Assembly (NCBI GenBank): GCA_951406725.2
Contig: OX597833.1
Coordinates: 46,996,001 to 47,060,000 of the forward strand
Length of the DNA stretch: 64,000 bases
From: Octopus vulgaris
Taxonomy: Eukaryota
Direction of reading: 5' to 3'
The position numbers were made by a program, and so were the translations under genes. Positions 6,452-35,252 of the stretch are shown piece by piece. The notes below the pieces were generated by a model. That model was given only the letters and a program-made list of their open reading frames with translations, did not search any database and was not told where the DNA came from. The stretch's first letter is position 1. Every line of letters begins with the position of its first letter.

Positions 6452-6645
6452 CTTAGTTTTTCTAATGCTCGTAGCTTAGTTTTTCCTTGGGGCTGGCCGG
6501 ATTGGAGCGATCTCAAGATTAATCAGCCGAAATTGCTACGATGATCCTGTTCTTGACTGAAGATTGAGGGCTTCGAATGTCCCGTCCGTTTTTTGTATCG
6601 TCTTCTAAGTGTTTTGCGTTCTTGTCCCAGTTTGTAATTTTCTAC
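6451..6645 (+). mobile_element. (TA)n-embedded non-autonomous element, permuted-HHR family 1
   Basis: flanked by TA tracts; homologous to 9826-10224, 27965-28256 and 34873-35027(-). Confidence 0.75.
6506..6572 (+). ncRNA. candidate non-circularly permuted hammerhead ribozyme
   Basis: AGCGAT-C-TCAAGA .. AGCC-GAA-ATTGCT .. TCTTGA-CTGAAGA-TTGAG-GGCT: all three stems and all core nucleotides present, strands in reversed order. Confidence 0.65.
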
Positions 6646-9825: not shown

Positions 9826-10224
9826 GTATTCGATATTCATTTCCACACGCGCCAGCTTAATTCAATTCGTCCTTAGTCGAAAGACACCTGTTGTTATGTC
9901 CTGTTATTATTTTTACTGTATTTATTATTGTATTTATATTTGGTAACTTTGTCCGTTTTTTTCGTCCTTGTTTTTGTATACAGTTGCTACTTTCTTCCAA
10001 GGAATCTAATGCTCTTAGCTTAGTTTTTCCTTGTGGCTGGCCAGATTGGAGCAACCTCAAGAATAATCAGCCAAAATTGCGAGGATAATCTGGTACTTGA
10101 CTGATGATAGAGGGCTTCGAATGACCCATCCTTGTTTTCTTTGTATCGTCTATCTGGATGTTTTGTTGTCCCTTTTTGTATCACCTAGCTGTCTGGATGT
10201 TTTGCATTCTTGTCCCATTTTGTA
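9826..10224 (+). mobile_element. permuted-HHR family 1 element, longer copy with decayed core
   Basis: GCAAC-C-TCAAG..CAGCC-AAA-ATTGC..CTTGA-CTGATGA-TAGAG-GGCT at 10051-10116; U16.1 and G12 equivalents mutated. Confidence 0.7.
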
Positions 10225-21706: not shown

Positions 21707-21707
<1 letters not shown>

Positions 21708-22858
21708 TGGGCCCCAACTATGCGAACCTGTTCGTTGGCTATGTTGAGGCCCAAATATTCTCTAATTTCACTGGTCCCACTCCTGAACTATATGGTCGTT
21801 ATATTGACGACATTATCGGTGCCACCTCACTCTCCCGCGAACATCTAGATTCCTTCCTCTCTTTCGTCCAATCTTTCCATCCAGCCCTCCACTTCACTTC
21901 CACTATCTCCAACACCTCTGTCTCCTTCCTCGACATTTCGGTTAGCATTCTTCACTCCACTCTTACCACCTCCATTCACTACAAACACACAGACTCACAC
22001 TCATACCTCAACTTCTCTTCCTCCCACCCAGAACACACCAAGCTTTCCATCCCCTATTCCCAATTCCTCCGTCTACGTAGGCTCTGTAGTGACGACCATG
22101 ACTTTGAGACTCAGTCTCAACGTATGGCTCACCACTTCACCCTACGTGGATACCCCCTCACCACTATCCACACCGCCCTTGCCAGAGCACGGTCCGTGGA
22201 CCGTGTATCTGCTCTCTCTCCCCGAACCCGCCCTGTAGTCTCCCGCCTCCCTTTTCCCCTCACTTACCACCCCACGACCCTACGTCTCCAACGCACCATT
22301 CTTCGAGCTTTCCGTCATCTCCAGTCCGACCCGTCCACTTCACACCTCTTCCCTAACCGACCCCTCCCCTCTTTCAAACGAGCCCACAACCTTCGAGACC
22401 TTTTGGTCCATAGCTCCTTCCCTGACCCTACCTCCCAACCCGGCTCGTTCCCCTGCTCCCGCCCACGTTGCCGCACTTGCCCTTACCTCTCCAACACCAC
22501 CCGCCTCACTAGCACCCACCATCGACCCTATCCCATCATCCACTCCTTCACCTGCACCTCCAGCAATATTATCTATTGCATCTCTTGCTCTCTCTGCAAT
22601 TCCTTGTACATCGGACAAACGGGACGCCGCTTGGCTGACCGGTTCGCGGAACACCTTCGTGACATCCACCTTGCGAACGACACACCGGTCTCACGCCATT
22701 TCCGCTCCACCGGTCACTCCTTGCAACACCTATCTGTGTTCGGTTTGTCCTTACACAGAGGCCATCCGGATTCCCGTTTGCGCCGTGAACAGGAATTAAT
22801 CTTCTCTCTTCGCTCTTATACGCCATTTGGTCTCAACTCTGCCCCCCTCCTCATCTAA
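21707..22858 (+). CDS. 5'-truncated Penelope-like element ORF: RT C-terminal half and thumb plus GIY-YIG endonuclease
   Basis: MGPNYANLF (internal RT motif), RYIDDI catalytic motif, FLDI, IHYKHTD..YLNFSSSHP, Cys linker CSRPRCRTC, NIIYCISC..YIGQT..RFAEH..H; 383 aa without stops. Confidence 0.95.
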
Positions 22859-23656
22859 CCCCCTCTCCCCCCTCCTCACCTATCCTTTCTCCCCCGACCC
22901 CTACTTCTTCAGTCCTTCATCCTTTCACCCCTACTCCCCTTCCCTTCTTCCCTCTTTCTCCCTCCCTCTTCCCCTTCCCTCTGCTCCCTCACTCCCTCTC
23001 TCCCCTTCTCCCTCTTTCCTCCTTCATCCCCCTCATCCCCTTCCTTCTCCCCCATCCTCTCCTCATTCCCCTCCCCTTCTCTCCCCCTCTTCTCCCCCTC
23101 CCCCTCTTCTCCTCACTACACCACATGACTTTACACATCACATATGATGTGCCATACTAATACACACACCAACTAATACATACTAATACGTACTAATACA
23201 TACTAGTACATACTAATACTTACACCAACCCTATACATACACACGTCCAGACCCCGCATACGCACTTATACTCTCTCACACACACACACACACACCTATA
23301 CATACCAATACGTACTAATACATACTAATACATACTAATACATACACCAACCCCATACATACGCACGTCCAGACCAATCCTACGCACTAATACTCTCTCA
23401 TACACACACACACACACACCCTTATACATACTAATACATACACCAACCCTATACATACACACATCCAGACCCCTCCCACGCACTTTTAGCTGGTCCCTCA
23501 ACCCCTTTATCAACCCTATTATCTCCCCTTATTTCGCTCTCGCGTCTCATGTTTGATCTTTGACCTCTCGCCGAAATCAGATCGCCATGTTGATTCGTTA
23601 GCTACTGCACGCATTTTTTTTCTCTCCTTCTTTCTGTGTTTTTCTCTCTCTGTGTA

Positions 23657-23694
23657 TCTTTCTGTTGAAGAGCGTAGGCTCGAAACGTTAAAGA
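23657..23694 (+). ncRNA. minimal type I hammerhead (core variant CTGTTGA)
   Basis: TCTTT-CTGTTGA-A-GAGC-GTAG-GCTC-GAAA-CG-TT-AAAGA. Confidence 0.7.
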
Positions 23695-23791
23695 CTTGTT
23701 TTATTTATATTTCCTGAGCGCCATACTAATACAATTGTTCGTTTGTTTTCCACCTGCCTTCGTCTTTTGTTTATTTTCATAAAGCTTCCCG

Positions 23792-23842: not shown

Positions 23843-23963
23843 TAATCCAAACATGAAAACACAAAGAGGAAACAACGCGAGGACGTGGAACAAGTATAGT
23901 ATTATTGGACGCTCAGGAAAGAAATAGGGTTTAATGTTTCGAGCGGAGCTCTTCGTCAGAAAC
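23838..23963 (-). mobile_element. solo Penelope pLTR-like fragment beginning with a minimal HHR
   Basis: minus strand GTTT-CTGACGA-A-GAGC-TCC-GCTC-GAAA-CA-TT-AAAC (23929-23963); downstream TTCCTGAGCG.. resembles the adjacent element's 3' region. Confidence 0.75.
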
Positions 23964-24180: not shown

Positions 24181-24363
24181 CAAATAAATAGAATTTTAAC
24201 AAGTGGGACACATTAATATAATTTTTCTCAAATATTTTTAACAGAGCAAGATGATGGGAGAAATTCATATTGTCGCTATGGTAGCTAAGAATAGACTACA
24301 CCTTCAAGAATCCTTGATATCCTGTGCTTATTTTGATTTTATATATATATATATATATATATA

Positions 24364-24418
24364 TCGCCTTTACCTTCGAAACACGGAGTAGACGAAACGT
24401 AGGCGGCTGAAGAAGGGG
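24364..24418 (+). ncRNA. candidate permuted hammerhead family 2 (3' cleavage-product portion)
   Basis: TCGCCT..CTTC-GAAA-CACGG..AGGCGG-CTGAAGA-A-GGGG at the start of TA-flanked element 24364-24628. Confidence 0.5.
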
Positions 24419-24626
24419 AATTTTCCTTGTGTTGTGTGTCTTGTACCCTGTTTTTTCGTTGTTTTAAAAGAATGTCCGTTTCCATGGTTCTGTTTTTATG
24501 TTTTCGTTTCTCATTGTGTTCGACGTTTGGGTGTCCTGTAGCTATATATGCATGTGTATATACATATAGATGTAGGTACCGTACATATATGTATGTATAT
24601 ATGCATATGTTTTAATTATTATTTTG

Positions 24627-24724
<98 letters not shown>

Positions 24725-27633: not shown

Positions 27634-28136
27634 AATGATAAATAAAACAAGTCAGATACAACAGGCAAACGTTAAGCATGTAATCAAGCTGAAACTAATG
27701 TCAGGAAGGAAGGCTAAAAAGTGGAAACGATGTTACAACATTTAGTAACTAATTAGTAATTAAATAAATTAAATATCTTCACTGATATAGAAATTCGACA
27801 TTAATAGAAGAAATTGCTGGAAGCCAAGTACACAAATGTGTATTCGCGTACTTCGTCGTTACTTAAACATATACACACGTGTATGTAAATCTCTCTATAT
27901 ATAAGCTTTTATCCCTTCTTGCCTTCCTATTTCTCTCTCTCTCTCCCTCTCTGTCTCTGCTTGCTGATCAATTGTTTTTGTCCCATTTTGTCTCATTCCT
28001 GTTTTTATTCGTTACTGTTTCCAATTTTATCTTCGTCTCTTGTTTTCCTATTCGTCTCTGTTGTCACATTCTTTCCTTCTACCAAGCAAATCTAATGCCC
28101 ATAGCTTAGCTTTTCCTTGGGGCTGGCCGTTTTGGA

Positions 28137-28204
28137 GCAAATCTCAGAATTAAACAGCCGAAATTTGCCATGATGAATCGGTTTCTGACTGAAGAATGAA
28201 GGCT
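28137..28204 (+). ncRNA. candidate non-circularly permuted hammerhead (family 1, in element 27965-28256)
   Basis: GCAAAT-C-TCAGAA..AGCC-GAA-ATTTGC..TTCTGA-CTGAAGA-ATGAA-GGCT; perfect 6-bp stems I and III. Confidence 0.7.
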
Positions 28205-34704: not shown

Positions 34705-35252
34705 GGTAAGTAGCTTGCTTATGAACCACATGGTTCTGGGTTCAGTCCCATTGTGTGACACCTTGGGCAAGTGTCTCCTACTATAGCCTCGGGCCGACCA
34801 AACCCTTGTGAGTGAATTTGGTTGAAGGAAACTGAAAGAAGCCCGTCGTATATATGCATATATATATATATATAAAATGGGACAAGAACGCAAAACATCC
34901 GGACAACTAGATGATACAAAAAGGGGACAATAAAACATCCAGAAAGACGATACAAAGAAAACAAGGACGGGTCATTCGAAGTTTTCTATCTTCAGTCAAG
35001 AACCAGATTACCCTCGCAATTTCGGCTCTGTGTGTGTGTGCGTGTGTATGTGTGTGTGTGTCTGTGTTTGTCTCCCCCATCATCGCTTGACAACCGATGC
35101 TGGTGTGTTTACGTCCCCCGTAACTTAACGGTTCGGCAAAAGAGACCGTTTAGCATAAGTACTAGGCTTACAAAGAATAAGTCCTGGGATAGATTTGCTC
35201 GACTAAAGGCGGTGCTCCAGCATGGCCACAGTCAAACGACTGAAACAAGTAA
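34705..35252 (+). mobile_element. SINE family B carrying a permuted-HHR family 1 fragment (34873-35027, minus) in its central microsatellite
   Basis: SINE halves 34705-34850 and 35030-35252; insert reads AGCCGAAATTGC..TTCTTGACTGAAGA on the minus strand. Confidence 0.8.

Follow-up and report, generated by a model that had tools for sequence, protein, structure and literature searches.

The window analysed here, a stretch of 64,000 nucleotides from Octopus vulgaris, belongs to a genome of 2.8 Gb and contains, between two TA tracts, an insert that carries blocks of a putative hammerhead ribozyme core. The following features were assigned to the insert and its flanks.

24340-24364, no strand: (TA)n microsatellite, 5' flank and likely insertion target; most family A copies adjoin TA tracts
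24364..24636, plus strand: copy of family A, a non-coding Penelope-like tandem repeat, truncated at its 5' end; unit positions 1-274 counted from the predicted cleavage site
24364..24368, plus strand: stem I 3' strand TCGCC, with which the predicted 3' cleavage product begins; partner at 24402-24406
24373..24377, plus strand: stem II 3' strand CCTTC, last base C11.1; the likely partner GAAGG, 27-29 nt upstream of the site, is missing here
24378..24381, plus strand: conserved GAAA (G12-A15.1), from the sequence and alignment A1
24381..24386, plus strand: stem III 5' strand ACACGG; its partner and the NUH triplet, 5' of the site, are missing here
24394..24399, plus strand: 3' strand of Eckert's helix 'I', by which the distal ends of stems I and II are joined; partner absent from this copy, paired variants across subfamilies
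24402..24413, plus strand: stem I 5' strand GGCGG and CTGAAGA core (C3-A9), from sequence and pairing
24415..24418, plus strand: GGGG, formerly proposed as stem II partner and likely not the true one; four pairs, two of them G-U, a weaker duplex than with the upstream strand
24628..24723, no strand: (TA)n tract, 3' flank; overlaps the fixed 3' end of family A, which is the same in other copies

A preliminary description of this DNA had reported TCGCCT (24364-69), CTTC-GAAA (24374-81), ACACGG (24381-86), AGGCGG (24401-06), CTGAAGA (24407-13) and GGGG (24415-18), and all of these bases and their pairings were confirmed in the window sequence. It had also let the insert begin exactly at the predicted cleavage site. 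The boundary is compatible with that position, but the first T of the insert may belong to the TA tract, so that the boundary is either the predicted site or +1. Alignment of the insert with the 770-bp unit of locus L022 gave 91.7% identity over 276 bp and placed its end near 24636. The folding energy of the window stretch alone was not unusual (z 0.68), and Rfam gave no match at gathering threshold in the window; on four loci it returned 98 weak matches, none to a ribozyme family and none over the motif. Nested folding programs, whose model does not include pseudoknots, preferred other hairpins over the fold proposed below. Elsewhere in the window, a truncated ORF of a Penelope-like element (PLE) with a weak GIY-YIG match (E 0.0017) occupies 21707-22855 on the plus strand and is followed by a minimal hammerhead-like motif of ordinary order (about 23645-23695, plus strand). 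Another ordinary-order core was seen at 23959 on the minus strand.

The insert had been taken for a single copy, which proved wrong. Family A is a multi-thousand-copy repeat with at least 2075 copies, as a 28-nt pattern found 2075 exact matches and a 25-nt pattern 1683 matches with at most one mismatch, the reversed control being 0 for each. A first look had yielded 2712 candidates, of which 40 were scored. The tandem unit measures 770 bp in L022, and other tandem pairs have a period of about 790-850 bp. The copies have one common 3' end, a short tail, TA-tract neighbours and inverted partners. Tandem or partial-tandem units, tails, inverted 5'-truncated copies and microsatellite targets are thus all present in family A, and tandem units, tails, inverted copies and TA targets are given as hallmarks of PLEs in the available text of two studies (PMC8557442, PMC11167929). 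No RT or endonuclease ORF, that is no ORF with RT and GIY-YIG, was detected in the 770-bp unit; family A is therefore at most a non-autonomous member of the PLEs and, by analogy, would be a passenger of an autonomous one. An ORF survey combined with BLAST of the flanks revealed no linked autonomous partner, and a search with the middle of the unit retrieved further units only and no autonomous element. PLE ORFs near copies (L184, L180, L102 and L104, with Pfam RVT_1 or GIY-YIG) were considered and rejected, being inverted or discontinuous with the unit. A MAFFT majority sequence over long flanks was noisy and was left out. Two copies, L022 and L199, are longer than the unit, which would fit circular RNA intermediates.

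The stem III partner and NUH triplet missing from the window copy had been expected in longer copies as CCGTGT-H. Longer copies do carry both, in the form TCGTGT-C or covarying versions of it. The block pattern fitted 75 intact family A copies, of which 66 were parsed and nine dropped as the site pattern failed. In the parsed copies the triplet was GUC in 53, GUA in nine, AUC in three and GUU in one. Their alignment comprises 990 cells, 94.1% of them paired (96.4% in stem I). Two pairs of stem III were altered on both sides, in 17/66 and 21/66 copies, a third occurred in U-A, U-G and C-G forms, and one pair of stem I changed from C-G to U-A in five of 66 copies. Taken together, stems I and III held 45 cells altered on both sides against 16.5 in shuffles, a value that none of 500 shuffles reached and that compares with at most 10 in slid controls, although such cell counts overstate the independent events because the copies share ancestry. 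Two measures that count pairs or pair types were unexceptional, the observed value being reached by 45 and 43 of 500 shuffles. The core bases CUGANGA, GAAA and NUH are present (alignment A1 and the triplet counts); their conservation is not independent since copies were selected partly on the core. The leader also pairs with the segment directly preceding stem I, and this pairing is kept across subfamilies.

The preliminary description had suggested that this topology may recur in independent families, and three further families of the same genome (B, C and D) indeed display the same layout. Families A and B have only short low-complexity matches in common. Family B forms a 706-bp tandem unit in L211, gave 2021 exact pattern matches and is represented four times in the window.

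6491-6645, plus strand: family B copy with a complete motif at 6491..6563 (upstream stem II strand, AUC site, GAAA, CTGAAGA)
9889-10181, plus strand: family B copy; the copy at 10101 has a mutated triplet and GAAA
28076-28260, plus strand: diverged family B copy with a complete motif at 28121..28195, stems I and III altered yet paired
about 34930-35025, minus strand: family B copy starting 12 nt after the predicted site

Family C corresponds to the 3' end of two published octopus consensus sequences of Naiads (PMC8557442, available portion), and the 17-nt motif of the octopus Naiad 3' end has 523 exact matches in the genome. Family D has 1925 matches (loci L321-L350, L080 and L185); it lies behind a different kind of ORF and is mostly devoid of the upstream strand. 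The motif was seen about 350 nt behind the ORFs and about 115 nt from the 3' end, with a G run mostly in place of the upstream stem II strand. These ORFs presumably resemble the C-terminus of a HERO-like non-LTR retrotransposon with restriction-like endonuclease; Pfam gave no match for any of three. The central part of family D is nearly identical to the motif in the consensus Naiad_Plae.

Several side observations concern these repeats. At L052, near 1640 on the plus strand, the 3' part of family A is directly joined to family B just before its stem I, a chimera which suggests template switching by a machinery common to both, as far as the sequence allows. A GTGACCAG motif stands behind a pyrimidine-rich tract in both families (about 470-485 in the L022 unit, about 340-348 in the L211 unit) and is possibly a promoter element. 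In addition, 14 type I hammerhead-like motifs with a long loop II and a mostly palindromic stem III were noticed in several further repeat families (L025, L034, L065, L077, L078, L082, L108, L123, L125, L126 and L146).

If the RNA is cut before it is copied into the genome, the 5' ends of copies are expected at the predicted site. Copies were therefore sampled with patterns lying 3' of the site, leaving the 5' side unselected, and their ends were mapped by anchored extension, also in family C, where TA tracts had disturbed the ends obtained by BLAST. In a few cases, among them L222, L031 and L293, the extension runs too far by chance, and these ends were kept uncorrected. The sample of family A consisted of 117 copies, namely 35 of 36 places of one set and the exact places among the matches listed, and includes a few local duplicates. 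The interval -3..+21 was chosen after viewing these 117 ends and then held fixed. It contained 53 of the 117 ends, an 8.6-fold excess, with 27.6 ends per 1000 nucleotides at risk against 3.2 in -200..-4 and 2.9 in +22..+40; the six ends in the latter interval correspond to the background rate. A second sample of family A, taken at +133, comprised 55 rows for 50 loci, including some chosen as tandem pairs; here 14 of 55 ends fell into the interval, at a rate of 14.7 versus 2.3 in -200..-4 and 1.7 in +22..+131. For family B, of whose 2021 places the first 70 were used, 73 copies gave 22 ends in the interval, a 4.4-fold excess (15.0 versus 3.4 in -200..-4 and 3.8 downstream), and four ends at background rate in +22..+36. 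No pile-up was detected in family C (3/30 ends, ratio 1.1) or in family D (1/30 ends, from 30 of 1925 places, ratio 0.9).

The expectation that 5' ends would accumulate at the site was thus correct in that they are non-random and extend from the site over the next ~21 nt in families A and B; it was not correct for C and D, nor for the exact position. Only one of the 117 family A ends, none of the 55 sampled at +133 and one of the 73 family B ends lay within 1 nt of the site, so that the exact start of the window copy is unusual. Exact starts were also found in L019 and L021, among 29 other loci.

These ends could alternatively mark an internal transcription start or stalling of the RT on a structure that is real and whose ribozyme is inactive, slow or a protein-binding fold. 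Such an explanation would suit the scatter of family A ends from +3 to +21, including a cluster within the stem III strand (+16..+21), the 56 of 117 family A copies (about half) which read through the site, the lack of a pile-up in C and D, and the reported start of PLE transcription inside the pseudo-LTR (PMC8557442, available text). Stalling, however, predicts a peak at +28..+41, where the RT first meets stem I and helix I, and the rate there is that of the background. Moreover, of the 22 ends in the family B peak, 14 are no further downstream than +9, in front of the 3' strand of every helix, and a start site would need to coincide with the predicted cut in two families of little common sequence. 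The step at the site, the low rates at the first helices and the ends located 5' of the helix strands are better explained by run-off from a cut RNA than by stalling, and the explanation by transcription start or stalling is considered unlikely. Since copies start far more often just after the predicted cut than elsewhere, the RNA likely cleaved itself before being copied into the genome. These DNA ends suggest that cleavage may occur in vivo.

Regarding the architecture of the core, the 3-2-1 order initially proposed was borne out: the site block (S) is followed by the GAAA block (G) and the CUGANGA block (C), as in type SGC. With this order, the motif is distinct from the cyclic C, G, S order with nested stems of types I, II and III. 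A descriptor of the S-G-C arrangement gave 105 distinct hits in 1,261,462 fetched bases, which are enriched for these families and partly redundant, and none in 3,784,384 shuffled bases. The upstream stem II and the extra helix described below accompany 72 of the 105 hits.

In the original reading, stem II was formed by CTTC and the downstream GGGG. This pairing is disfavoured, and the likely partner is GAAGG, located in family A 22-29 nt 5' of the predicted cut site, forming five Watson-Crick pairs and lost from the window copy. The four families have different upstream partners, GAAGG/CCTTC in A, GGCTG/CAGCC in B, GACACC/GGTGTC in C and GGCCCC/GGGGCC in D. The strand immediately precedes the extra helix, its first pair is always G10.1-C11.1, and its offset is fixed within each family (range -22 to -31). 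When copies were selected by core, stem I and stem III only, 39/51 copies of A, 26/37 of B, 4/7 of C and 4/16 of D had an upstream partner with a score of at least 5, support in D being weak because 12 of its 16 copies have no full upstream partner. An equal downstream window reached that score once among the 51 copies of A, never in B and C and twice in D, and shuffled leaders had an upstream partner of this score in 3-12% of cases. Both strands are invariant in family A and exhibit no covariation, so the support for stem II lies between families.

A plain type-SGC hammerhead, in which block C is intact and stem II is formed by GGGG after one bulged A, has to be weighed against this. The GGGG helix is 95.5% paired in family A, PLE hammerheads often have a bulged base there according to the accessible part of PMC4209133, and in most copies of family B a GGCT complementary to AGCC occurs 5 nt after the core. 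On the other hand, of the four pairs of the family A helix two are G-U and the fourth is broken in 7/66 copies, no two-sided change was observed, and the helix is absent from other families. No stem II strand was found within 0-2 nt after CUGANGA, where an intact block C would have it, other than the weak G-U version in family A. A downstream helix scoring at least 4 occurred in 2/56 hits of A, 0/32 of B, 0/9 of C and 0/8 other hits (2/105), and it is lost in the family B variant L273 and in C and D, where the upstream partner is kept. The plain type-SGC structure is therefore regarded as quite improbable. A descriptor requiring the downstream stem II was tried and discarded; among SGC hits it retrieved only family A and missed B, C and D.

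With the upstream partner, the extra helix takes the exact place of helix 'I' of Eckert. This helix scored at least 4 in 52/56 hits of family A, 25/32 of B, 4/9 of C and 6/8 other hits. If stem II pairs upstream, A9 and G10.1 would not be joined by the backbone, and we infer that the motif is a circular permutation of type SGC opened at this junction. As it follows type SGC in its order and departs from it in the intact block C, it is best named a variant of type SGC. A viroid hammerhead reportedly tolerates an extra base at the 9/10.1 junction. In PLE hammerheads, the presence of one more nucleotide at this junction is common and conserved (PMC4209133, available text), indicating that the junction tolerates change. 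In family A, the core G8-A9-A-G-G is as complementary to CCUUC as the upstream strand is, and within +12..+50 it forms a perfect complement of the stem II 3' strand. Once the upstream fragment has been lost, this pairing could lock the 3' product in an inactive state.

The Naiads, a group of PLEs, were reported to be without canonical hammerheads, some of them being flagged with a core or half core (Craig 2021, PMC8557442, available portion). Inspection by eye of the accessible supplement of that study revealed the layout in the 3' part of 10 of 54 Naiad consensi, namely Bfor, Naiad-3_Chem, Amil, Aacu, Anas, Naiad-2_Movir, Plae, Naiad-4_Dst, Obim and Ovul, the names having been assigned from the following header and the order of the metadata. 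The places viewed were 60/62 of CTGATGA, 30/43 of CTGAAGA, 23/23 of CTGACGA and 25/25 of CTGAGGA, and line breaks hide motifs in this source. In Bfor stem I has only two pairs, and in Aacu stems I and II contain mismatches. The ten motifs represent seven different sequence types, and the metadata assign them to five phyla; each has its own stem sequences and G10.1-C11.1. The cores of the nematode Naiads listed there are in ordinary order. In one further consensus of S, G, C order, stem I and GAAA are separated by a long hairpin. Family A has only the ribozyme layout and the target in common with the Naiad sequences available, and no sequence link to them was found.

It could also be argued that the blocks act in trans only, between two RNAs or tandem units, as in dimeric PLE hammerheads. 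Family A is tandem and PLE hammerheads often need dimers (PMC4209133, in the part available), but stem III is non-palindromic and 5-6 bp long, all partner strands lie within ~75 nt and the linker from stem I to stem II (1-4 nt) fits that of type SGC, which is typically about 3 nt and monomeric in the available text of PMC10085705; action in trans only is thus very improbable. A chance arrangement of short motifs in a repeat, with which the missing folding-energy signal and Rfam match would agree, is hardly credible given the empty shuffled sequence (3.78 Mb), the compensatory changes and the layout in unrelated sequences of five phyla.

Taken together, the insert probably represents the 3' part of a Penelope-like repeat without coding capacity. 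The RNA of this repeat likely folds into a hammerhead of type-SGC order with a predicted opening between A9 and G10.1, and its 3' cleavage product was likely the template from which the insert was reverse-transcribed. Of the original reading, the order, the missing partner and NUH, the recurrence and the non-random ends were retained; the GGGG stem II and the pile-up at the exact position were given up, and two of the four families gave no pile-up. From 5' to 3', the strands are arranged as stem II 5', helix I, stem III 3' with NUH, cut, stem I 3', stem II 3' with GAAA and stem III 5', helix I, and stem I 5' with CUGANGA. Helix I and stem III would form a hairpin, the loop of which would form stem II with the upstream flank and stem I with the downstream one, and this double pseudoknot would rebuild the normal hammerhead core. 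In transcripts that span several tandem units, each unit would be cut once. The enzyme nicking (TA)n would be a Penelope-type RT-endonuclease supplied in trans, likely by a Naiad, and reverse transcription would start inside the RNA about 275 nt past the site, by analogy to the system in the available text of PMC11167929. Running off the cut 5' end, the RT would give rise to short copies like the window insert, usually 3-21 nt short, these nucleotides being lost during joining. Uncut or re-ligated (circular) RNA may account for the read-through copies and those longer than the unit.

The comparison with known systems follows the available portions of the sources. Five examples of type SGC were cleaved in vitro (Eckert, Friedrich, Weinberg, Weinberg 2023, PMC10085705); they (HRIMA-1 and variants) came from metatranscriptomes only, and none was found in genomes of known organisms despite a RefSeq search. 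The octopus motifs resemble them in block order, short linker, a helix joining the other sides of stems I and II and a pseudoknotted core. They differ in that the site block is preceded by the 5' strand of stem II together with a strand of the extra helix, which places the ends between A9 and G10.1; block C was assumed unbreakable in that study. Type SGC has been shown to cleave and its organisms are not known, whereas cleavage of the octopus motifs is predicted and they belong to animal retroelements with thousands of copies.

With the hammerheads of PLE pseudo-LTRs (Cervera and de la Pena 2014, PMC4209133; PMC11167929), the octopus motifs have in common the core near the 3' end, G10.1-C11.1, tandem copies, tails, AT-rich targets, an internal RT start and the proposal of cleavage and circular templates. 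Pseudo-LTR hammerheads are of type I order and often have a minimal palindromic stem III needing dimers; here, in contrast, the order is non-circular, stem III is full and genomic 5' ends track the site. In an anole PLE, cleavage needed protein and was dispensable for insertion in vitro, and no reads started at the site (Frangieh 2024, PMC11167929). As in Naiads (PMC8557442), (TA)n is targeted. Non-LTR retrozymes are non-coding tandem units with one hammerhead each, for which an origin as non-autonomous derivatives of PLEs has been proposed (Li, Clavereau, Pollet, bioRxiv 10.64898/2026.07.22.740005), and the octopus units are likewise non-coding and tandem with one motif each. Those retrozymes are, however, defined by type I hammerheads, the only type considered in the available text of that preprint on animal retrozymes, while the units described here (706 and 770-850 bp) are permuted and occur mostly as truncated single copies. 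Searches of the accessible literature listed no report of a hammerhead of SGC order or with a split core in animal retroelements.

The wider reading, towards which we lean, is that this topology falls outside the six block orders thought possible, as the chain would run from G10.1 to A9 with the CUGANGA strand unjoined to stem II. It would be the hidden ribozyme of Naiads in at least five animal phyla and of non-coding passengers, cutting in the germline, setting the 5' ends of hundreds of copies and holding the ends of the unit RNA for circularisation. If this is true, a permutation excluded by the three-block model would be added, and a 75-nt RNA with its 3' end at A9, which is easy to assay, could serve engineering. 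Non-circularly permuted ribozymes would then extend from anonymous metatranscriptome contigs to animal genomes, and the scoring of Naiads as devoid of hammerheads would be explained. The 5' ends of thousands of genomic copies would allow a direct and cheap test of what hammerheads do in PLEs, where cleavage proved dispensable in one in vitro study.
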